Of a stretch of DNA of 64,000 nt, positions 3,920 to 54,111 are shown piece after piece. The position numbers and the translations under genes were made by a program. Numbering within the stretch: position 1 is the first letter of the stretch; the number at the start of each line of letters is the position of its first letter. The notes beneath the pieces are model-generated. The model was given only the letters and a program-made list of their open reading frames with translations, searched no databases and was not told where the DNA came from. The stretch is from Escherichia phage JES2013: the sequence record KC690136; one strand, given 5' to 3'.

Positions 3920-4633
3920 ATGCTGAATACTAAACTGATCGACAACCTGGAAAAACTGTCTCAGCCTGAAAACTACCTTTGGTCTGCCAACTGGGTGGAA
4001 AACTGGAACCGTGTGGCAGCTAAGGTGAAAAAATCATACACACCATTCGAATTACAGCTTAGCTTCATTGAGGAAGAGTTCAATGAAGTTTTGGAAGAGC
4101 TGGAGAAAGGTGATGGTGGAGATCACTTGCTAAAAGAGGCCTGCGATCTTCATGTTGTCACAAGTTATGCCGCTTATCTTGTTAATGACAATCACGAAAA
4201 GTGGTCAAACCTGTTTGATAATCCACGAGGTATTAAGTTCAAGATTGGTGAGTTCTATGATACACTGATCGCTGCGAAAAACACCTCTAAGCAAAGAGCG
4301 TCTGCTTACCGCTTAGCAGAGTTGTCAACAGCTTTGCTGTTCCAGCTTCGCGGCGATGTGTGCGGGATGATGCGTAAGGTTCTCAAATCGAATGACAGCA
4401 AGTTTGCACGGGTCAACCATCTACGGTATTCACACGGTGCCAGTGCAGATATGCCTGCTGAACAACTCATCGAGTTGGAGATTAAAGATCTTGAGCGACG
4501 CTTTGATGGTCGATATGAAGGTTTTGTTGCTAAGGAAGAATTCTACAACGGTAATAAAGTTATCATATTCCTTGACAGTAAAGGTAAGATCATGAAGCCT
4601 TCAAGCTTCAAGGATGTAACAGAGTATATTTAA
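3920..4633 (+). CDS. MazG-like nucleoside triphosphate pyrophosphohydrolase domain protein
   Basis: EEEFNEVLEELEKGDGGDHLLKEACDL resembles MazG EExxE...E.GD...DL metal-binding helices. Confidence 0.5.
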   Translation: MLNTKLIDNLEKLSQPENYLWSANWVENWNRVAAKVKKSYTPFELQLSFIEEEFNEVLEELEKGDGGDHLLKEACDLHVVTSYAAYLVNDNHEKWSNLFDNPRGIKFKIGEFYDTLIAAKNTSKQRASAYRLAELSTALLFQLRGDVCGMMRKVLKSNDSKFARVNHLRYSHGASADMPAEQLIELEIKDLERRFDGRYEGFVAKEEFYNGNKVIIFLDSKGKIMKPSSFKDVTEYI

Positions 4634-23603: not shown

Positions 23604-23717
23604 ATGGCTAAAAAAGCCTTGAAGAAGGCGTACAAAAAAGAAATTGCGCTTGAGCTCAAGAAAAAACACAAGCGTGAAAAGAAACATCATGAGGATGAAG
23701 AGGGGGTGCAACAGTGA
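23604..23717 (+). CDS. Small lysine-rich protein
   Basis: 37-aa ORF MAKKALKKAYKKEIALELKKKHKREKKHHEDEEGVQQ; GAGGAGG SD; stop overlaps next GTG start. Confidence 0.3.
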   Translation: MAKKALKKAYKKEIALELKKKHKREKKHHEDEEGVQQ

Positions 23718-28750: not shown

Positions 28751-28987
28751 ATGGCCATAGATACTGTGTTGGTTTGGTATTGCGCATTGACCTTTCTGAC
28801 AATGGTTGTTTTAGCAACTCTTTGCATCATATCTTGTAGAAAAATTAAGTTTGACGACTTTATAACTATAATCACTGCCGCACCTTTTTGGCCTGTCGTT
28901 CTCTTCATTGTTGTTATGTGCTTGGTAGATCACTGTAAAACCGTCAGAAAAATGAAGGAGGCAGATAAGAATGGTAACAGTGACTGA
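28751..28987 (+). CDS. Small membrane protein (two predicted TM helices)
   Basis: Two hydrophobic segments: LVWYCALTFLTMVVLATLCIISC and IITAAPFWPVVLFIVVMCLV. Confidence 0.5.
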   Translation: MAIDTVLVWYCALTFLTMVVLATLCIISCRKIKFDDFITIITAAPFWPVVLFIVVMCLVDHCKTVRKMKEADKNGNSD

Positions 28988-29101
28988 AACTGTTTATACT
29001 GTTCTTAGGGAGATTGCATTCTATACAGACCTTAGTTCAGTATCTTCATGGGAAAAGAGTGTGTATTTAAAATGGTGCGTGAAATTAGAGGGGACCTTCT
29101 A

Positions 29102-29221
29102 ATGTTTCAAGCCATGTTTATTGAAATGCTCTCCGGAGTATTACTGCTGGTAGCCATTTTGGGTGGTGCGGCACTAATGTATAATTATCTTGAAAAAGGA
29201 GACAGCAATGGTAAAAAATAA
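29102..29221 (+). CDS. Small membrane peptide (39 aa)
   Basis: sORF MFQAMFIEMLSGVLLLVAILGGAALMYNYLEKGDSNGKK; GAGGGGA SD; below ORF-track size cut-off. Confidence 0.3.
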   Translation: MFQAMFIEMLSGVLLLVAILGGAALMYNYLEKGDSNGKK

Positions 29222-30759: not shown

Positions 30760-30945
30760 ATGAAGCACTATTGTCTGTCTGGTAGAATGGGTGCAGATTG
30801 TGATTGGGTTTTCTTAAAACTTGTCAGTATTCGAGAGTTCATTCCAGAGGAAGAGCAAGAAAGTGAGCTGATGTCATGGATCAACCATTACGGTAACACT
30901 TTTCGGCATGTTAAGGTGGAAGAGTTGCCAAGCGAGGCTGATTGA
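30760..30945 (+). CDS. Hypothetical protein
   Basis: 61-aa ORF. Confidence 0.4.
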   Translation: MKHYCLSGRMGADCDWVFLKLVSIREFIPEEEQESELMSWINHYGNTFRHVKVEELPSEAD

Positions 30946-30947
30946 CT

Positions 30948-31037
30948 ATGATTGCATCAATATTAACGTTTATGGGTGGCGTGGCATTCGGATTCATTGT
31001 TTGCCTGTTTATAGTGATTATGTCTATGCGAGGCTGA
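30948..31037 (+). CDS. Small hydrophobic peptide (29 aa)
   Basis: sORF MIASILTFMGGVAFGFIVCLFIVIMSMRG fills gap between flanking ORFs. Confidence 0.3.
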   Translation: MIASILTFMGGVAFGFIVCLFIVIMSMRG

Positions 31038-31040
31038 ATT

Positions 31041-31334
31041 ATGAAACTTTTTGAGTGGTTTAAAAAGTTTAAATATAAAGCTGTAGCCATCGTGCCGTGG
31101 TCCATTCAGTGGGTGGACGATGAGGGATTACCAATTCCAGGTGATAAAGACACGGGATACTGGATCATGCTTGAGAACGGGTTCGGTAAACGGAAATATT
31201 CCTGCACGGATACCTCAGGAGCATCTTTTAGGAGAATTCCTGGGTATAAATGTATGATTGTGTGGAAGATGTCTGGTGTACCTCCGGCCAATGCACAATA
31301 TCTTACTACCAATCCAACCACAGAAGAGGACTAA
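31041..31334 (+). CDS. Hypothetical protein
   Basis: 97-aa ORF. Confidence 0.5.
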   Translation: MKLFEWFKKFKYKAVAIVPWSIQWVDDEGLPIPGDKDTGYWIMLENGFGKRKYSCTDTSGASFRRIPGYKCMIVWKMSGVPPANAQYLTTNPTTEED

Positions 31335-33215: not shown

Positions 33216-33317
33216 ATGGGCGTGATTAAGAAATTAGTCCCAAATGTAGAGATTGCATGCTTTGAAATTATGTTTGCAATCGCAGTTGTAGTTAATGTGT
33301 TAGGTTACGGCTATTAA
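33216..33317 (+). CDS. Small membrane peptide (33 aa)
   Basis: sORF MGVIKKLVPNVEIACFEIMFAIAVVVNVLGYGY; GGTG SD 5 nt upstream; just after hpf. Confidence 0.3.
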   Translation: MGVIKKLVPNVEIACFEIMFAIAVVVNVLGYGY

Positions 33318-35392: not shown

Positions 35393-35721
35393 TGAAGATT
35401 GACCCGTTACTGAAGGCTCGTGCAGAAAAAGCGTACACCATTAAGCTGACCAACCTGGTTCCTACTTGTCATCCAGATGTAGGTTGGCCCGAAGGTTTGG
35501 TGGAGGGAACTGTAACAGCTGCATACCTTCCTAACATCAAATACCTCATGGAGATCTTAGAGATGGATGAGGAAACTGCAGAACAGTTCCAGTTGGATAT
35601 GAAACAGAGTGGGACTCTGGTTATTCACGGGTGGTATAATACTAAAGATGCAGAAGACCCTCTGGTAACTTCTAATCTGGCATATGAAATCTTAGGGCCT
35701 TTGAACCTGGAGGAAGACTAA
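35392..35721 (+). CDS. Small acidic protein
   Basis: 109-aa ORF, overlapping start/stop with neighbours. Confidence 0.5.
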   Translation: MKIDPLLKARAEKAYTIKLTNLVPTCHPDVGWPEGLVEGTVTAAYLPNIKYLMEILEMDEETAEQFQLDMKQSGTLVIHGWYNTKDAEDPLVTSNLAYEILGPLNLEED

Positions 35722-36008
35722 TGAAAGATCTGGTTAAGATTAAGATTAAAGATACCAATGGGGAGCTCAGCCATTTTGGAATTAATGATGGTGACGAGCT
35801 GATCGCACACCTGCCTACCAAGGAGGTTGTAAGCAAAGCAGTTGCCGGAGAAGAAGCTGCAATGCAGGCTGCAGGTGTGGATGAAAACTATGTAGCTATG
35901 TGCATGTGCCGAGATCAGGTTGTTCTGTATAAAGCGTATCGACCAAACGGAGCCACGGAGTGGCTTGTATTCCGACCCGAAGGATATGAAATCTTAGAGG
36001 CACTATGA
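35721..36008 (+). CDS. Small acidic protein
   Basis: MKDLVKIKIKDTNGE...GYEILEAL. Confidence 0.5.
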   Translation: MKDLVKIKIKDTNGELSHFGINDGDELIAHLPTKEVVSKAVAGEEAAMQAAGVDENYVAMCMCRDQVVLYKAYRPNGATEWLVFRPEGYEILEAL

Positions 36009-36088
36009 TAAATCTTGCCAAGGTTGCAACGGCACTGTTAATTATTTGCTGGTCAGTAACCTTAACACTGTGTCTTGTATTTCAGTGA
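36005..36088 (+). CDS. Small hydrophobic peptide (27 aa)
   Basis: sORF MINLAKVATALLIICWSVTLTLCLVFQ; ATG overlaps upstream stop. Confidence 0.3.
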   Translation: MINLAKVATALLIICWSVTLTLCLVFQ

Positions 36089-36097
36089 GGTGCTTGT

Positions 36098-36361
36098 ATG
36101 AACATCCTGATGTGGGTTATAGCAGTGGCGTTTGTTGCATGTTTTTGCTGCTGGGTTGCGGTGAGGATTTCTGTAGCTACCCTTCGGAAGTTGGGGTTCT
36201 CAGAATGGGATATTAATATCCTTTCTTTTCGCAATGAGACAATATCAGCCGCCCTGCTTTGTAAGAAATTCAAGTGGGAACCTTGTGAGGTCATGAACTA
36301 TCTAAGAACGGGAGATATCCCTGAAAGATTTAAAAAAGTTCTTGACGGTAAGGATAAATGA
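36098..36361 (+). CDS. Membrane-anchored protein
   Basis: N-terminal TM MNILMWVIAVAFVACFCCWVAV. Confidence 0.5.
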   Translation: MNILMWVIAVAFVACFCCWVAVRISVATLRKLGFSEWDINILSFRNETISAALLCKKFKWEPCEVMNYLRTGDIPERFKKVLDGKDK

Positions 36362-36389
36362 TAGTATAGTGACTAACAAGAGGTGAGGA

Positions 36390-36530
36390 ATGACAGATTT
36401 TACTGAAGCTTTAATGATGGCCTTGTCTGTTTTAGCGCTATCGGTGTGTTTTGGGGCGTTATTCACATCTCTGGTTAAAGTTTTACATACAGTATTATTA
36501 CCCAAGGAGCGCAGTAATGACGAAGATTGA
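36390..36530 (+). CDS. Small membrane peptide (46 aa)
   Basis: sORF MTDFTEALMMALSVLALSVCFGALFTSLVKVLHTVLL...; GGTGAGG SD. Confidence 0.3.
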   Translation: MTDFTEALMMALSVLALSVCFGALFTSLVKVLHTVLLPKERSNDED

Positions 36531-36796: not shown

Positions 36797-37102
36797 ATGG
36801 CTAAATCTAAAGTTGAACTGTTCACCTCTCTTCCTTCTGACACTGCAGAGCGTGATCGCCTTCGCAAAACAATCGAAGAACTGGTGGAACTCCAACTTCA
36901 GATTAAAGATCTGAAAGATGCCATCAAGGATATCATTCTTGTTGAGAAGCAGGATCATCTGTATTCTCCTAAATTCATCAAATCTCTGGTGGCTACCGAG
37001 TTCGATATTCGATATGAGGCTGAAAAACGTCGAGCTAAAATCGAAGAAGAGGTTGAGCACATGTCCGAGGCAGACATTCTGTTCAAACGCTCTGTAGAAT
37101 AA
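36797..37102 (+). CDS. Hypothetical coiled-coil protein
   Basis: Charged heptad-like sequence; AAGGAG SD. Confidence 0.55.
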   Translation: MAKSKVELFTSLPSDTAERDRLRKTIEELVELQLQIKDLKDAIKDIILVEKQDHLYSPKFIKSLVATEFDIRYEAEKRRAKIEEEVEHMSEADILFKRSVE

Positions 37103-37110
37103 TGACAAAG

Positions 37111-37135
37111 AGAGGGGCTTGGGCCCCTCTTTTTA
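37111..37135 (+). terminator. Rho-independent terminator GAGGGGC-ttgg-GCCCCTC + TTTTT
   Basis: Perfect 7-bp GC stem and T tract after stop. Confidence 0.7.
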
Positions 37136-37157
37136 CTATCTATGAAGGAGATTTGAG

Positions 37158-37484
37158 ATGGGTATACCGATCACTGTAAAAGAATTGAATGAACGTGATG
37201 CAGGTGGTCTATGGCCTGCACGAAAAATACGCTGCGTCTACATGAAAGAGAACCTTGAACATCTTGATCAACAGATCAAGGTCGGTGATATTTTCGAGGT
37301 CTTCTATTCCAATCGTCGCAACTGGGAAACCATTCAGCCTTCTGGTTTTGTTCTTGCCAAACTTGACACTGGAGAAGTGATTATCCCAGGGTTGGATATT
37401 GTCTTCGAAATTATCCAGGAGTGGGATCCGGATAAGATTAGATATGAAGAGTTATTCGGTGAAGGTATTATCAAACCTGTGTGA
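37158..37484 (+). CDS. Hypothetical protein
   Basis: 108-aa ORF. Confidence 0.5.
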   Translation: MGIPITVKELNERDAGGLWPARKIRCVYMKENLEHLDQQIKVGDIFEVFYSNRRNWETIQPSGFVLAKLDTGEVIIPGLDIVFEIIQEWDPDKIRYEELFGEGIIKPV

Positions 37485-37792
37485 GGTGGATTATGTCTAC
37501 AAAGACGGCTAAATACTCCTACATGCCATCAACCTCTGCAGAGGTAGATTTTAGTTTCGATGTGTTTCCACTGTTTGAGGTGGTTCTGGCATACCCAACA
37601 ATACTATCTACTCCGGAATCACTTGTGCCTGTTAAGTTGCAGAACGCCATGCATTCTATGCACTACAACAATAAATGCAGGCACAGATGGTGTCAGGACG
37701 AGGAAAAAGATCTGGATAGTTTGAGAGATTTTGACAGTCACCTTTTGACACCTTTCAGCTACTCCAACCTTGATAAGCCATCATGGGTATAG
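37481..37792 (+). CDS. Hypothetical protein
   Basis: 103-aa ORF. Confidence 0.45.
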   Translation: MRWIMSTKTAKYSYMPSTSAEVDFSFDVFPLFEVVLAYPTILSTPESLVPVKLQNAMHSMHYNNKCRHRWCQDEEKDLDSLRDFDSHLLTPFSYSNLDKPSWV

Positions 37793-37816
37793 CAAAATAT
37801 CAAATTTAAGACACCT

Positions 37817-37844
37817 AGGACGCTCTGTGGCGTCCTTTTCTTTA
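37817..37844 (+). terminator. Rho-independent terminator AGGACGC-tctgtg-GCGTCCT + TTTCTTT
   Basis: 7-bp stem, T-rich tail, just after 37792 stop. Confidence 0.7.
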
Positions 37845-38005
37845 TCTGGTGCACGATTGCATACCTTGGACAGATAATCTCCTTACAGAGCGTTTAAGAG
37901 CTTCCTACAAACAACTCTCTTTTTCGAGCGTAGCGAGAACGCACGTCCGTTTTGACCAAAATCACCATACGCTCGGATTTTAACCAAACCCTCGCGGCGT
38001 TTCTG

Positions 38006-38034
38006 TTGACACATTGCCGCTCCAGTGATAATAT
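38006..38034 (+). promoter_or_regulatory. Sigma70-like promoter TTGACA-N17-TAATAT
   Basis: Consensus hexamers; lies inside track ORF 37952..38365, so that ORF's 5' part is unlikely to be coding. Confidence 0.6.
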
Positions 38035-38054
38035 CCACACATCATTTGGAGAAT

Positions 38055-38156
38055 ATGGAATACACAATGAAAACATTGTCCGAAGTTTTAGTGGTGATCC
38101 TGATGATCATTACGTCCATAGCGGCTGTTGCCGGAATACTCACGGGTGGAACATGA
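38055..38156 (+). CDS. Small membrane peptide (33 aa)
   Basis: sORF MEYTMKTLSEVLVVILMIITSIAAVAGILTGGT; GGAG SD; stop overlaps next ATG (ATGA). Confidence 0.35.
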   Translation: MEYTMKTLSEVLVVILMIITSIAAVAGILTGGT

Positions 38157-38365
38157 TCAACACACATGCATCTGAAGAGACATCAAAAGGAGTGACTATA
38201 TGTCCCTTGGCTGAGCCAGTGAAAGAGGAAAACTTCGATTCTGAAGATTCTCCATCTTCGCTCCAGGTAGACCCTGAGGCTGATGACCTAACGTGGGAAG
38301 ACATCGTAGATATCTGGTTCTCTGTTATGCCTGAGCACGAAGAGTTCAGGGGTGGTAGACTATGA
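38153..38365 (+). CDS. Hypothetical acidic protein
   Basis: 70-aa ORF translationally coupled to upstream peptide. Confidence 0.4.
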   Translation: MINTHASEETSKGVTICPLAEPVKEENFDSEDSPSSLQVDPEADDLTWEDIVDIWFSVMPEHEEFRGGRL

Positions 38366-38486
38366 AGCACCGAGCCCACACAAGTTCCTCATGCTAAAGC
38401 ATGGCCTGAAGAGGCAAACGTGCATAATTCCTGTGCATCGGAACGTATGAAACCTTGTTCACACTCTCATTTCCAGAGGAGATTTT

Positions 38487-38702
38487 ATGAAGATAGAAAT
38501 ATTTGGTGGAGCTGACAACACTCGTGGCCTGATTTACCTTGAATTCGATGAATCATACCTACCAGAGGTGTTAAATATAGACTCTGTTGCGGAGGCTTTG
38601 GGAGTAAACCCTAAAGAACTCCACTCTTGTGCTGAGATCGATGGTTGGGAAGAGACCATGAACATTGATTTCAGTGAAGTAGAGGATGAACCGCTGGACT
38701 GA
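38487..38702 (+). CDS. Small acidic protein
   Basis: MKIEIFGGADNTRGLIYLEFDE...; last gene of rightward block. Confidence 0.5.
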   Translation: MKIEIFGGADNTRGLIYLEFDESYLPEVLNIDSVAEALGVNPKELHSCAEIDGWEETMNIDFSEVEDEPLD

Positions 38703-39541
38703 CACACAATTAGCTGCCCGGCTAAAGTGCTGGAAGCACCTATAACACATCTTTCAACTAAATTTCCCACCACAACAATCACTTACCTCCCATACATGAC
38801 TGTTTGCTTGTTTAGTGAGCAGTCATGCCTTGACATTCTTGCCTATCCTGATAAAATTAAGTTCTTCTCTTTTCTTTTACCGAGTAATTCGGGTTTTCTG
38901 TTCTCTTCGGTTTGAAGGGGTATGGAGATACACCTGAGTGAACAGGGTGAACAACCGAACATTTGGCTATGGCATTAGCATGGCGAAGCGGACGGGTGAC
39001 GAAAGAGGGGCCGGAGGACACCAGTCACTGCCATATGGTATATGGGTGATAACCTGAAGAGTCTGAATAAGTGTTTAAGTACCAGTCAGAGGAAAAGGTG
39101 AATGGTAGCCGAAGGGGGAGGGGGGTTTCTTGTATCTTTAATTTGTATATTATGTATACACTTGTAAACCAATCTCATTTGAATTTGTTTACCACACAAA
39201 GTGGATAGAGACAAATATTACCTATTAAACTTGAATTATTTATAGAAAATACCACAACACTACTTAAGTCTTTGATTTTACACACAAATCCTGCAGATAT
39301 TCACCCTCCATATTTAACATACTTGTAACATATTCCATACTCTACCTGCCCGATCAATTCACCCAACTACATCCCCATATTTTCCCTGTCTGTACTACCC
39401 CTGCCCCGCCGGGAGTCCCGTCATATCTGGCTTTCCAGCAAATATCACACCCACAAATATCATTGCCTGAAGAGGGTTTCGTCCCATAATACATGCCTTA
39501 CCTGAAGAGCGCTTCATATACCCCGTAAATTTTTTAATTGA

Positions 39542-39574
39542 CCCCCTCCCCGCCGCCGGAGGGGTCGGCTTTTC
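39542..39574 (+). terminator. Terminator-like hairpin CCCCTCC-ccgccgcc-GGAGGGG + TCGGCTTTT
   Basis: GC-rich stem followed by T tract in gene-free region. Confidence 0.5.
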
Positions 39575-40120
39575 CCACACAGACCTGAAGAGTCAGCCAG
39601 AAATATCTGAATGGACCCAATTCTGCCCTGTTATGAGCCGTAGCGACTGGAGTGCTGCCAGGCGGACGAAATGGGAATACTTCTCATTCTTATAACAATT
39701 CTCAAATATCGAGGCAGTGAGGCAAATTAATAGGTAAGGCCGTTCACATAGTGGCACAACATTTGCAGTCTATCTGATGTGGTTGAATGAGAATACCTAT
39801 CATTGTGAGAATAGTTATCATTACGGGCAATTTAACATAATACCCATTATGCGCACCACTGGCGATACATACAGGGATTGATAACATGAGTTACTGTTTA
39901 CGCATATAACAATTATATTTCTTATCATTTGTGTGGGATATAGTTAGCAGCCGATAGATTAGATATTGACCTGCGGACTTCTGACCGTCTAGACGTCTAA
40001 ACGCCCACACAACAAGGCTTATACATACATCGCTGAATGTAAACATGGCCGCAAAAATGCTACCATACAAGATTGTAAATTTTTCATGCAGCACTTGACA
40101 AAGAGGAGAAAAACTTGTCT

Positions 40121-40162
40121 GACACTTTAGACATACTGGTGACACAATATGACACTTTAGAC
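40121..40162. repeat. Direct repeat GACACTTTAGAC (two copies, 30 bp apart), followed by iterated TGTTTAC/TGTTCAC motifs to about 40360
   Basis: Exact 12-mers at 40121 and 40151; at least eight (A)CTGTTTAC-like motifs in the next 200 bp. Confidence 0.55.
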
Positions 40163-40449
40163 TTAATTGACATGCCTGACTGTTTACGCTGTCACTATTC
40201 GCGCTATTACTATTCACTCCCTTTACTGTTCACGCTCTTACTGTTTACATGCTTAATGGTTTACATGCTTAATAGACTGCATGTCTAATAGTTTACATAG
40301 CTAACTGTTCACATACTTATCATTTACATGATTGACTGTTTACACAGAGATGATAAGCCATGACATTCGTTTGCATGACAATAATTAACAAGATAACAAT
40401 TGACAAGCTAACAGCCAACAAGCTGACAATTAACTTGTTTACAATAGAT

Positions 40450-40615
40450 GACATAATATAAAAGCAGGGCAACTATTAGAAGATCTATAGTTGCCTTGCT
40501 TGTTATGTCATGATTAACTAAATACAAGGCAACTATGATCTGATTAATAGTTTGCAAACAAACTATCACGGGGGTGATGGTTACTGCTTTTATATTATGT
40601 CGCGACTCCGTCGCG
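40450..40615. repeat. Nested inverted repeats: 18-bp arms GACATAATATAAAAGCAG / CTGCTTTTATATTATGTC around palindrome GGCAACTAT-N10-ATAGTTGCC, plus CGCGAC-tcc-GTCGCG
   Basis: Arms at 40450-40467 and 40584-40601 are exact reverse complements; inner palindrome 40468-40495; GGCAACTAT also recurs at about 40517 and 40634. Confidence 0.6.
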
Positions 40616-41295
40616 CCATGCCATTCGTTTGCATAGTTGCCTTATTGTTACAGATAAAATAATTGTATTGTTAATTATTTCTTATCTTTCTATTAGTCAT
40701 CTAATGATTCCAGTCAATATAGTAATGTACAGTAAACATTAGACGACTAAAGATTTATCTGCTTATAATAACTTACCGTGACAATTTCGGACTGTTTACG
40801 AAAAATGTTGGCACCTAAGCTGATTTATGTTATGCAGTTTACACGAATAATTATTTTATGCAGGTATTGACTATTCCATTATTCTATGGTTGGAATAAAT
40901 ACTTAGCAGACTATAGAATGGTGAGCGTACGTAAATTCTGAGATCTGGCGGCTATAGTTATACTCGATTTTTCACGTAGAGCACGCTTTTGTGGTTATGT
41001 AAGTGTATGACTTATAAAGATTTTTAGTTGTTGACAAGACACTGAAGATATGCATCAGGTTAAATTTTGTGCAATAGCTGCATTACGTGCAATTTTGGAA
41101 GGAAAAACGGGTAAAAATAGCCCTGCTACCACACAATGAAAAGTTATGCAATAGTTATTTTACATGTATATTTGTACAGTGTGTGGGGTTGATGGCTCGT
41201 CAATTATTCCACTTGCCAGGTAGGGCCGTTTATGGTAGGGGGAAGATCAGACAAAAAGAAAGGGGCCTAAGCCCCTTGATAATTCAGTTAAAAAA

Positions 41296-41715
41296 TTATA
41301 ATGATTCGTATATTTCAAAAATCCGATTTGCCAGGTCGTTACGGTACCGGAATTTTTCATCACGTTTGATCATAAGATCTTTATAGCCGTACTCTTTAAG
41401 CACTTCATTAACTTTATGGCGGCACACCTTCATATTATCCTGAGCGTCACCAATAAACCTGTTGCTATGGTGCATGGCTTTAATTTCTTCTTCCAGGACC
41501 AGGGCAACTATGCGGACCGGATCAAGCTGATAGGCGGTAACATCAATGCGGCATTGTAAACGGCTTTTTACGTCTGCCACCGGATATACTGCAACCTCTT
41601 CCCCGTCAACATTGACAATAATTAGTTTACCATCGATTTCGAATCCTTTCGCCGCCGGACCGTGACAAAAAGCGTTATCAAAGCTATATGCCGGATTATT
41701 AGATTTAATGTTCAT
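41296..41715 (-). CDS. Hypothetical protein
   Basis: 139-aa ORF; last gene of leftward block. Confidence 0.5.
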   Translation of the reverse strand: MNIKSNNPAYSFDNAFCHGPAAKGFEIDGKLIIVNVDGEEVAVYPVADVKSRLQCRIDVTAYQLDPVRIVALVLEEEIKAMHHSNRFIGDAQDNMKVCRHKVNEVLKEYGYKDLMIKRDEKFRYRNDLANRIFEIYESL

Positions 41716-42860: not shown

Positions 42861-43009
42861 TTTTACCGCTCTTTAAAACAAGGTGCCAACCGTTTCCAAT
42901 AGATCACTGACTGCCAGGACAATACCGATCAGCACATATCTAACCATAAGGGGAAAGAGCGCCAATATTGCCACCACAATCCCCAAGGTGATAATTATCT
43001 TTCTCATGG

Positions 43010-43610: not shown

Positions 43611-43715
43611 TCACCCGATACCGTTGGAAGACAAGATCGCATTAGCCATGGTTGCAATCAGGCCAATACCCAGGGCAATAACCAAGATCACTGCATCGAT
43701 TAATTTCTGTTTCAT
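43611..43715 (-). CDS. Small membrane peptide (34 aa)
   Basis: sORF MKQKLIDAVILVIALGIGLIATMANAILSSNGIG in gap between listed ORFs. Confidence 0.3.
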   Translation of the reverse strand: MKQKLIDAVILVIALGIGLIATMANAILSSNGIG

Positions 43716-45919: not shown

Positions 45920-46039
45920 TCAGTTACTTACAGCGATAAAATACATCCCTACGCCTAACAATATTTCAAGGGCGATGATCTCAAGCCATACCATAACCCG
46001 GCGCACCTTATCGGTGCGGGGCTTATCCTTGGTTGTCAT
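45920..46039 (-). CDS. Small membrane peptide (39 aa)
   Basis: sORF MTTKDKPRTDKVRRVMVWLEIIALEILLGVGMYFIAVSN; strong SD AGGGGGAG. Confidence 0.3.
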   Translation of the reverse strand: MTTKDKPRTDKVRRVMVWLEIIALEILLGVGMYFIAVSN

Positions 46040-49743: not shown

Positions 49744-49863
49744 TTAAAAATTTAAGAAAAATTTTGCAAAACTGTTAGCGCTACTCATTAACATTTGCGC
49801 CAGGATGTAACCAATGATGCAAACGATAATAGTTACCTTTGTGTGCTGGCGTGTAGTACTCAT
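49744..49863 (-). CDS. Small membrane peptide (39 aa)
   Basis: sORF MSTTRQHTKVTIIVCIIGYILAQMLMSSANSFAKFFLNF; SD GAAAGGGGGG. Confidence 0.3.
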   Translation of the reverse strand: MSTTRQHTKVTIIVCIIGYILAQMLMSSANSFAKFFLNF

Positions 49864-53940: not shown

Positions 53941-54111
53941 TTATACCAAAATCTCCAGCCAGAAAGCACACGGGAACACTTTGATGATTGAATCTTTACC
54001 TGGTTCAGCAGTTCTTTTTCCGTAGGGTAGGTAGAAATACCCTCCTGCAGATTCGAACACAGCCCCTTCGGTTGTATCTATCACAGCCAGAATTAAGATT
54101 TTAGTCTCCAT
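53941..54111 (-). CDS. Hypothetical small protein (56 aa)
   Basis: sORF METKILILAVIDTTEGAVFESAGG...; SD GAGGGAG; below ORF-track cut-off. Confidence 0.3.
   Translation of the reverse strand: METKILILAVIDTTEGAVFESAGGYFYLPYGKRTAEPGKDSIIKVFPCAFWLEILV

Follow-up and report, generated by a model that had tools for sequence, protein, structure and literature searches.

Does the short open reading frame that follows a near-consensus promoter in the genome of Escherichia phage JES2013 encode a protein, and what might that protein do? The locus (38055-38365) lies in a 64,000-nucleotide stretch of record KC690136, the whole of which we refer to as the window; features are on the plus strand unless noted. 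An earlier note, made from the letters alone, had singled out a 33-residue frame here as one of ten small membrane peptides missing from the list of open reading frames and often coupled in translation to their neighbours. That reading, as genuine small membrane-peptide genes often translationally coupled, is supported for this example by the sequence comparisons below. They confirm 38067-38156 as a conserved Vequintavirus gene under purifying selection, one that has already been catalogued, and we put the probability that it is a real, translated membrane microprotein gene at roughly 0.7.

The phage of the window is a Vequintavirus, an rV5-like E. coli myophage. Over positions 37000-38937 the sequence matches that of Escherichia coli O157 typing phage 4 (KP869102, species Vequintavirus JES2013) at 100% identity, and those of about 115 further rV5-like myophages at 90-98%. 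The 530 bp surrounding the small ORF are present in 116 phage records, all of them Vequintavirus, and some of these were deposited as "Campylobacter phage". Genes in the window run on the plus strand until about 39000 and on the minus strand thereafter. In the rV5 genome paper the corresponding part is said to contain "88 mainly small ORFs", after which come 2.6 kb without ORFs (PMC3606486). A literature search on these Vequintavirus genes yielded no functional, transcriptomic or Ribo-seq work, and neither ribosome profiling nor infected-cell proteomics for the genus; a PNAS 2026 paper that mentions Vequintavirus has T5-like pre-early genes as its subject.

From the ATG at 38055 an in-frame reading to the TGA at 38154-38156 would give 33 residues, MEYTMKTLSEVLVVILMIITSIAAVAGILTGGT, and the frame is present behind the promoter just as the earlier note had described it. 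The second ATG, at 38067, gives a 29-residue peptide, MKTLSEVLVVILMIITSIAAVAGILTGGT (38067-38156), the first cistron after the promoter. This is most likely the true start, and not 38055 as had been proposed, because the upstream MEYT segment varies freely, a divergent lineage lacks the upstream ATG and the matching PHROG profile has 29 positions. The ATG and three codons at 38055-38066 show no codon phase: their variable sites fall 3/2/1 by codon position, and the replacements are radical (E to G or K, Y to C or R, and T to A). ATG 38055 is absent from the divergent lineage (L017 and L022, from IMG/VR and Logan contigs), where an AGAGGAG Shine-Dalgarno (SD) sequence stands 8 nt before the ATG equivalent to 38067. 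The phrog_34195 profile aligns only to residues 5-33 of the 33-residue form, and the JES2013 and Murica records annotate the start equivalent to 38067. By this comparison the segment 38055-38066 most likely belongs to the 5' UTR or extends the frame without constraint, and does not supply the functional start.

The SD sequence that had been assigned to the small ORF exists, as GGAG at 38048-38051, separated from ATG 38055 by 3 nt and from ATG 38067 by 15 nt. With that spacing, and with its loss in 4 of 11 relatives, the SD is weak in the window. For ATG 38067 there is a GGA 7 nt upstream; in FV3 no recognisable SD precedes the ORF. The peptide itself has the size and the single predicted transmembrane helix (fewer than about 50-60 residues, one helix) by which small membrane proteins are recognised. 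For residues V7-L25 of the 29-residue form the Hessa scale sums to -3.56 kcal/mol and the Kyte-Doolittle mean over 19 residues is 2.95, so the transmembrane prediction that had been suggested as a check bears the reading out.

Conservation in related genomes, the other check that could be made on sequence, gives evidence for coding. The alignment comprised 12 genomes, 11 of which entered the codon-position counts and pN/pS values. The frame is intact in 11 of the 12, and in 15 of 16 sequences once three IMG/VR contigs are added, with the frame-specific signal still there; among the relatives compared it is broken only in B9-1 and one other sequence. Counted from ATG 38067 in 11 genomes, first, second and third codon positions account for 2/3/13 of the variable sites (binomial P=0.00085). 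In the small frame pN/pS is 0.16, against 0.58 in frame +2, that of a longer ORF considered below, and 1.52 in frame +1. The divergent lineage retains a 28-residue peptide, MKTSSEVLIVILMII(V/I)AIAAVAEILYTL, which over the first 25 codons differs from the window at 7 codons without a change of residue and at 5 by mostly conservative replacements. Searched against phages with tblastn, the peptide is found in 112 of about 116 Vequintavirus records at 80% coverage or more and 83-100% identity, and in none outside the genus, while DNA identity of the region drops to 77%.

The peptide is not unlisted, as had been supposed: an exact cluster look-up finds the 29-residue sequence identical to JES2013 gp152 (YP_008530397.1), and the phrog_34195 profile HMM matches it over its full length (E=4.6e-21, 75 bits, profile positions 1-29 of 29). 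The first-stage ORF track most likely passed it over because of a length cut-off. The exact peptide shares a 90% cluster with annotated Vequintavirus proteins, among them Murica gp132 (YP_009593991.1) and BASEL phage proteins such as bas56_0133; the 33-residue form is the one annotated in BASEL phages and MiataMamis. These entries are the same gene in the same place, between the promoter known in rV5 as P162 and a 70-residue gene, and JES2013 gp152, Murica gp132 and the BASEL entries differ from the gene of the window only in the annotated start (29 or 33 residues). The gene is missing from the annotation of KP869102, Mangalyan, rV5, FV3, WM and V18. All matching entries carry the label "unknown function" or "hypothetical protein". 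When 1.84 billion representative proteins were searched exhaustively with phmmer, the only match was the peptide's own cluster, and a Pfam search gave no match at E<=1; phmmer, PHROG and Pfam searches found no homology to any characterised protein.

In B9-1 the 5' two-thirds of the small ORF are replaced by unrelated sequence, and the promoter and the downstream gene are retained. At least one natural isolate can thus do without the peptide, and the 70-residue gene is not strictly dependent on it.

The promoter (38006-38034) is of the sigma-70 type, with TTGACA at 38006-38011, a 17-nt spacer, TAATAT at 38029-38034 and the TG of an extended -10 element at 38026-38027. It matches the consensus at 10 of 12 positions, is kept in all relatives aligned and corresponds to P162, a promoter predicted independently in rV5 (Table S4, PMC3606486). 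About 170 nt further upstream sits a terminator-like hairpin of the Rho-independent type (37817-37845; stem AGGACGC...GCGTCCT, then TTTCTTT), which is unchanged across 11 genomes and is annotated as a terminator in the Murica record. It lies 3' of the gene at 37481-37792 and is a putative end of the upstream transcription unit. Directly 5' of the -35 element stands an 84-nt non-coding block (37922-38005) that is invariant or near-invariant in 11 genomes, including the divergent IMG/VR lineage, between variable flanks. It occurs once within the window, an Rfam search gives no match to it, neither strand has a significant RNA fold, and the overlapping ORF at 37849-37983 lacks a coding signature. 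The block probably acts at the DNA level in regulating the promoter.

Downstream, the stop of the small ORF (TGA 38154-38156) overlaps the ATG at 38153 of the second cistron, as had been noted, in an ATGA junction that is retained throughout the main lineage. This cistron (38153-38365; ECTP4_00627, phrog_16356) encodes a 70-residue acidic protein. A search for its homologues gave 43, which are 66-96% identical to it; those with a named source all come from Vequintavirus, and none of the 43 carries a Pfam domain. Its N-terminal half is variable, with in-frame indels, and its C-terminal 31 residues (DPEADDLTWEDIVDIWFSIMPEHEEFRGGRL) are invariant. A search against PDB sequences gave no match, and an AlphaFold2 model (mean pLDDT 63) has two short C-terminal helices and low confidence elsewhere. 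An SD-like GGGTGGA for this gene (38143-38149) lies inside the last codons of the small ORF; it is near-invariant in the alignment, and the Murica record annotates a ribosome-binding site (RBS) here. Conservation of the C-terminal TGGT codons of the peptide may stem from this embedded site rather than from the peptide. A third gene of the same strand unit (38487-38702; ECTP4_00628, phrog_12108; SD GGAG 38478-38481) encodes a 71-residue acidic protein.

An arrangement of this kind raises the question of whether the peptide matters at all. The small ORF could be a leader whose translation counts and whose product does not, delivering ribosomes to a weakly initiating next gene or regulating it; its place directly after the promoter with a short 5' UTR, the ATGA overlap, the RBS within its last codons and the nucleotide conservation of these codons, the strongest in the ORF, are all as such a leader would have them. 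However, the hydrophobic core is under purifying selection and is kept in two lineages that differ at many synonymous sites. A pure ribosome-delivery ORF needs no such constraint on its peptide, which makes this role unlikely, and the same observations (pN/pS 0.16, a core kept across two diverged lineages) do not fit a regulatory leader peptide that is free to vary. B9-1, moreover, keeps the downstream gene without the small ORF, and the divergent lineage has an 8-nt spacer and an SD of its own in place of the overlap. Nor is the downstream start masked by significant mRNA structure (fold of 38041-38200, z=-0.26 against shuffles).

Another reading makes the product a toxic peptide that depolarises the membrane, either a type I toxin or a holin-like protein serving host shutdown or permeabilisation, and its size, its one helix and its very short tails agree with the description of type I toxins as peptides of fewer than 60 residues (PMC12648545). 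In this respect it resembles IbsC, TisB and the Hok family, small hydrophobic one-helix peptides with short extensions; the promoter is strong, and in the main lineage the helix carries an AxxxGxxxG pattern (A19, G23, G27). Against this, G23 is replaced by E in the divergent lineage, and beyond peptide size and helix the locus lacks the other three of the four features looked for in a type I toxin-antitoxin system, namely a conserved antisense promoter, a structured leader and a monocistronic gene. The sole antisense promoter-like site (38223-38195, minus strand, 9 of 12 matches) lies where FV3, WM, B9-1 and Aya have a deletion, and an Rfam search gives no match. The predicted 5' UTR is about 13-25 nt, the mRNA has no significant structure, and, in contrast to IbsC, TisB and the Hok family, the phage gene comes with neither a conserved antisense RNA gene nor a long structured 5' UTR and belongs to an operon with translational overlap. 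A holin or antiholin is hard to reconcile with neighbours that are small acidic ORFan proteins and with an early-type sigma-70 promoter. As putative holin rV5 has a 78-residue protein with two transmembrane domains at 28751-28987, and the lysin, too, lies elsewhere, so that the small ORF adjoins neither. We consider a toxin or holin improbable.

Far less credible is a reading in which the small ORF is no gene and the downstream frame extends 5' through this region to encode a longer protein. The window does leave that frame open, as a 137-residue ORF with a TTG start (37952-38365), and parts of it have been annotated as rV5 gp157 (101 residues), JEP1_131 and phiWec191 (119 residues). In Murica, FV3 and V18, however, it contains in-frame stops inside the small-ORF segment, and the long-ORF annotation is therefore wrong. 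Its pN/pS is 0.58 against 0.16, substitutions are phased to the small frame, and its start would fall upstream of or within the promoter. Least credible of all is a cleavable signal peptide that releases an exported signalling peptide of 6-7 residues (GILTGGT or EILYTL): every variant has AVA or VVA, with small residues at -3 and -1, before the tail, and the tail differs between the two lineages, but a hydrophobic stretch of about 19-20 residues suits a membrane anchor better than an h-region, the N-region (K2, E6) has no net positive charge, the tail codons are accounted for by the overlapping RBS and next start, and we know of no precedent for a secreted signalling peptide of this kind in lytic coliphages.

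We propose a model where the microprotein gene at 38067-38156 heads a short transcription unit under a near-consensus host sigma-70 promoter. Since the promoter is of the host type, unmodified host RNA polymerase would probably transcribe the gene, and the peptide would probably appear early in infection. The 29-mer would then probably insert into the E. coli inner membrane with an N-terminal tail of about 6 residues in the cytoplasm and a tail of 3-4 residues in the periplasm. Ribosomes ending at its UGA would sit on the AUG of the next gene and, together with GGGTGGA, this would probably couple synthesis of the two products. The tails being so short, any activity must reside in helix-helix contacts inside the membrane, and by analogy the peptide may act through such contacts on larger membrane proteins, in the manner of KdpF, AcrZ or MgrB.

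KdpF (29 residues), AcrZ (49) and MgrB (47) are single-helix modulators of larger membrane proteins or complexes (PMC12648545). The phage peptide shares with them its size, its single transmembrane helix and its very short tails, and differs in having no sequence homology to them, in belonging to a lytic phage and in having a partner that is small, acidic and soluble rather than a membrane complex. The gene kdpF is the first of kdpFABC and is co-transcribed with its partner genes; co-transcription with a partner gene is thus common to KdpF and the phage peptide. T4 Imm and Sp, small early membrane proteins of about 80-100 residues that act in superinfection exclusion, offer a second comparison, Imm having two helices. 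Like them, the Vequintavirus peptide is probably a phage-encoded small inner-membrane protein under an early host-type promoter; they are much larger and not homologous to it. Its most likely role would be that of a small inner-membrane protein made early in infection. It might also bring its acidic 70-residue partner to the membrane. It is tempting to speculate further that the helix peptide and the acidic protein form a two-part module specific to Vequintavirus. The acidic protein, with an indel-rich, disordered N-terminal half and a helical motif in its 31 invariant C-terminal residues, would be anchored or gated by the peptide at the inner membrane to neutralise a host envelope or membrane-associated defence protein, with the unit switched by a factor that binds the 84-nt block; as a whole, we hold this proposal to be rather unlikely.

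The example does not stand alone. The earlier note had counted ten small ORFs, nine with a single helix; our census, which agrees approximately, found ten sense-strand candidates with one hydrophobic helix (38067-38156 among them), eight consistent with coding and two that fail. A conserved 56-residue ORF without a membrane helix (53941-54111, minus strand; variable sites 7/0/11, pN/pS 0.17) is probably the one non-hydrophobic case in the earlier count. In the eight, the frame is intact in the relatives compared, with the exceptions already given for 38067-38156, and pN/pS is lowest in the ORF's own frame (0.08-0.45). Third-position excess is significant (P<0.05) for the ORFs at 29102, 30948, 38067, 45920 and 49744, marginal for that at 43611 (P=0.07) and not significant for those at 36005 and 36390. 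Seven of the other nine candidates thus appear consistent with coding by these measures.

That the pattern is too regular to be chance stands up to a stricter count. With a 4-mer SD, an ATG or GTG start and a hydrophobic helix required, the sense strand has 5 small ORFs and the antisense strand 1, against a mean of 0.08 and a maximum of 1 in 100 dinucleotide-preserving block shuffles. Among small ORFs in sense-strand gaps 13 of 66 have single-helix products, whereas all the other classes together have 26 of 688 (Fisher P=7e-6). Frequent translational coupling is suggested by tight junctions, with ATGA overlaps at 36005, 38153 and 46039, a TAATG overlap at 29102 and spacings of 2 and 3 nt on either side of 30948-31037.

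Four more of the supported ORFs lie on the plus strand. The 39-residue ORF at 29102-29221 (rv5_gp126, ECTP4_00598, phrog_15251; variable sites 4/2/15, pN/pS 0.08, intact in 6 of 6) is joined by its TAATG overlap to a 43-residue ORF, which in turn overlaps the putative holin; as 29102-29221 is thus the second coupled ORF downstream of that gene, a link to lysis is possible. The 29-residue ORF at 30948-31037 (variable sites 4/0/7, pN/pS 0.22, intact in 6 of 6) starts 2 nt after the upstream stop and ends 3 nt before the next ATG; it is annotated in BASEL phages and has homologues in E. coli prophages. At 36005-36088 a 27-residue ORF (intact in 10 of 10, pN/pS 0.37, variable sites 3/3/7, P=0.10) has its ATG in an ATGA overlap with the stop of the gene at 35721-36008; its exact sequence is not in the protein collection searched, and the other seven supported ORFs are in public collections. 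The 46-residue ORF at 36390-36530 (ECTP4_00622, rv5_gp151, phrog_16755; intact in 10 of 10, pN/pS 0.45, variable sites 4/3/6, P=0.24) is the first cistron after a promoter at 36342-36370 (P156) and overlaps the next gene by 14 nt. It and 38067-38156 are the two small ORFs that directly follow a sigma-70 promoter in this way.

The remaining three are on the minus strand. The 34-residue ORF at 43611-43715 (JES2013 gp163, phrog_14631; intact in 7 of 7, pN/pS 0.39) exists in two divergent allelic forms, both of which retain its length and hydrophobicity. A 39-residue ORF at 45920-46039 (phrog_13629; intact in 8 of 8, pN/pS 0.24) is joined to the upstream gene by ATGA and has a terminator-like hairpin after its end. 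Another of 39 residues, at 49744-49863 (phrog_16391; variable sites 6/1/12, pN/pS 0.15, intact in 6 of 6), is named "putative membrane protein" in phage A51.2. Besides 38067-38156, five of the small ORFs possess a PHROG family of their own, and most are annotated in rV5, JES2013, BASEL phages or KP869102. The functions of the eight need not be alike.

Two candidates were rejected: the 33-residue ORF at 33216-33317 is interrupted by a stop codon in Mangalyan and begins with ATA in phage D#, and that at 42873-42974 has a GTG start absent in all relatives and no codon phase. The ORFs taken from non-coding stretches as negative controls, at 37849-37983, 38352-38450 and 38938-39057, lack a coding signature.

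These results bear on the annotation of the genus. The records of rV5 gp157, JEP1_131 and the 119-residue phiWec191 protein need correction, as each fuses the peptide region in the wrong frame to the next gene, and the peptide should be added where KP869102, Mangalyan and others omit it. The 32-residue ORF at 38352-38450 and the 33-residue one at 33216-33317 are annotated in some relatives and do not behave as coding.

In itself, 38067-38156 is an ordinary phage microprotein gene and no new kind of element; small hydrophobic ORFs are common in the early regions of phages, and this is one more such case. In a broader context, at least eight single-helix microproteins appear to be encoded in the accessory, probably early, region of one lytic coliphage. 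With the BASEL phages Bas48-59 available, they would form a tractable set for asking what the membrane microproteins of phages do.

Directly 5' of the sigma-70 promoter of the 29-aa membrane peptide gene (38067-38156, +) lies a non-coding block of about 84 nt on the plus strand (37922-38005), which runs on into the -35 element at 38006-38011. The block does not vary at all across 10 aligned genomes and varies almost not at all in the divergent IMG/VR lineage, whose members keep a diverged form of the peptide gene. Its conservation exceeds that of the adjacent coding sequence. It occurs once in the 64-kb window and contains an 8-bp inverted repeat, CGAGCGTA (37926) and TACGCTCG (37968). An Rfam search of the block returned no match and RNA folding gave nothing significant. 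We suggest that this putative platform may be bound by a regulator.

Phage B9-1 is a natural loss-of-peptide variant. Unrelated sequence stands in place of its -10 region, its 5' UTR and the peptide gene up to about codon 20 (compared loci L008 and L016, homologous to window positions ~38030-38125), and the -35 element, the final peptide-gene codons and the downstream gene are all retained. There are also 18 unannotated GenBank records, flagged UNVERIFIED and titled "Campylobacter phage" (MG0656xx; loci L013 and L014). They are 86-98% identical across the region to this E. coli Vequintavirus, and their Campylobacter host label is probably wrong.

rV5 gp157 (101 aa), JEP1_131 and a phiWec191 protein (119 aa) are mis-annotations in which the 70-aa gene has been prolonged upstream, in the wrong frame, across the peptide gene (window 37952-38365; 711-1016 in locus L005 and 657-1016 in locus L011, both from relatives); in Murica, FV3 and V18 the wrong-frame extension is interrupted by stop codons. 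Some relatives (MiataMamis, BASEL phages, WM and B9-1) list the small ORFs 38352-38450 and 33216-33317 (both +) as proteins, but neither behaves like a coding sequence: several genomes have frameshifts or stop codons in them, and substitutions show no excess at third positions.

Two other small ORFs were observed elsewhere in the window. The 34-aa membrane sORF at 43611-43715 (-) exists as two strongly diverged alleles, MKQKLIDAVILVIALGIGLIATMAN... versus MLEKIFTVVVVGLALLVGLVATMAN..., of the same length and with a conserved C-terminal half. ORF 23604-23717 (+), 37 aa and very rich in lysine (MAKKALKKAYKKEIALELKKKHKREKKHHEDEEGVQQ), is preceded by a perfect AGGAGG Shine-Dalgarno sequence; each of the four genomes compared has it intact.

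The ORF-poor stretch at ~38900-41300, equivalent to the "non-coding" region named in the rV5 paper, is where the direction of transcription switches and where GC content falls to 33-36%. The motif ACTGTTYACR has seven exact copies in the 64-kb window; every one falls within 39893-40800 and is on the plus strand. The stretch also holds two 18-nt arms (40450-40467 / 40584-40601) that form a perfect inverted repeat, and a strong promoter at 38830-38857 (TTGACA-16-TAAAAT with TG) is directed into it. Searches of the stretch for tRNAs and Rfam families found neither. Overall it resembles an iteron-type replication origin or a multi-site regulatory region.

In the 28751-29221 region (+), two small overlapping ORFs come after the putative rV5 holin (78 aa, with two transmembrane domains and a K/R-rich tail). 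The first, at 28971-29102, has 43 aa; the second, at 29102-29221, has 39 aa, encodes one helix and has a pN/pS of 0.08. Instead of serving early host takeover, the two may have an accessory role in lysis.

The sORF 30948-31037 is for another 29-aa membrane peptide. Of 5426 complete E. coli genomes, 10 have chromosomal nucleotide matches of 77-89% to this sORF together with its Shine-Dalgarno sequence (window 30930-31043 was compared with 4001-4109 of locus L020, from another genome). The match in strain PAR sits in a prophage, flanked on one side by a holin-lysozyme-lysis protein cassette and on the other by DNA-packaging genes. From these chromosomal and prophage matches it follows that the microprotein gene is a tiny module moving between lytic and temperate phages.
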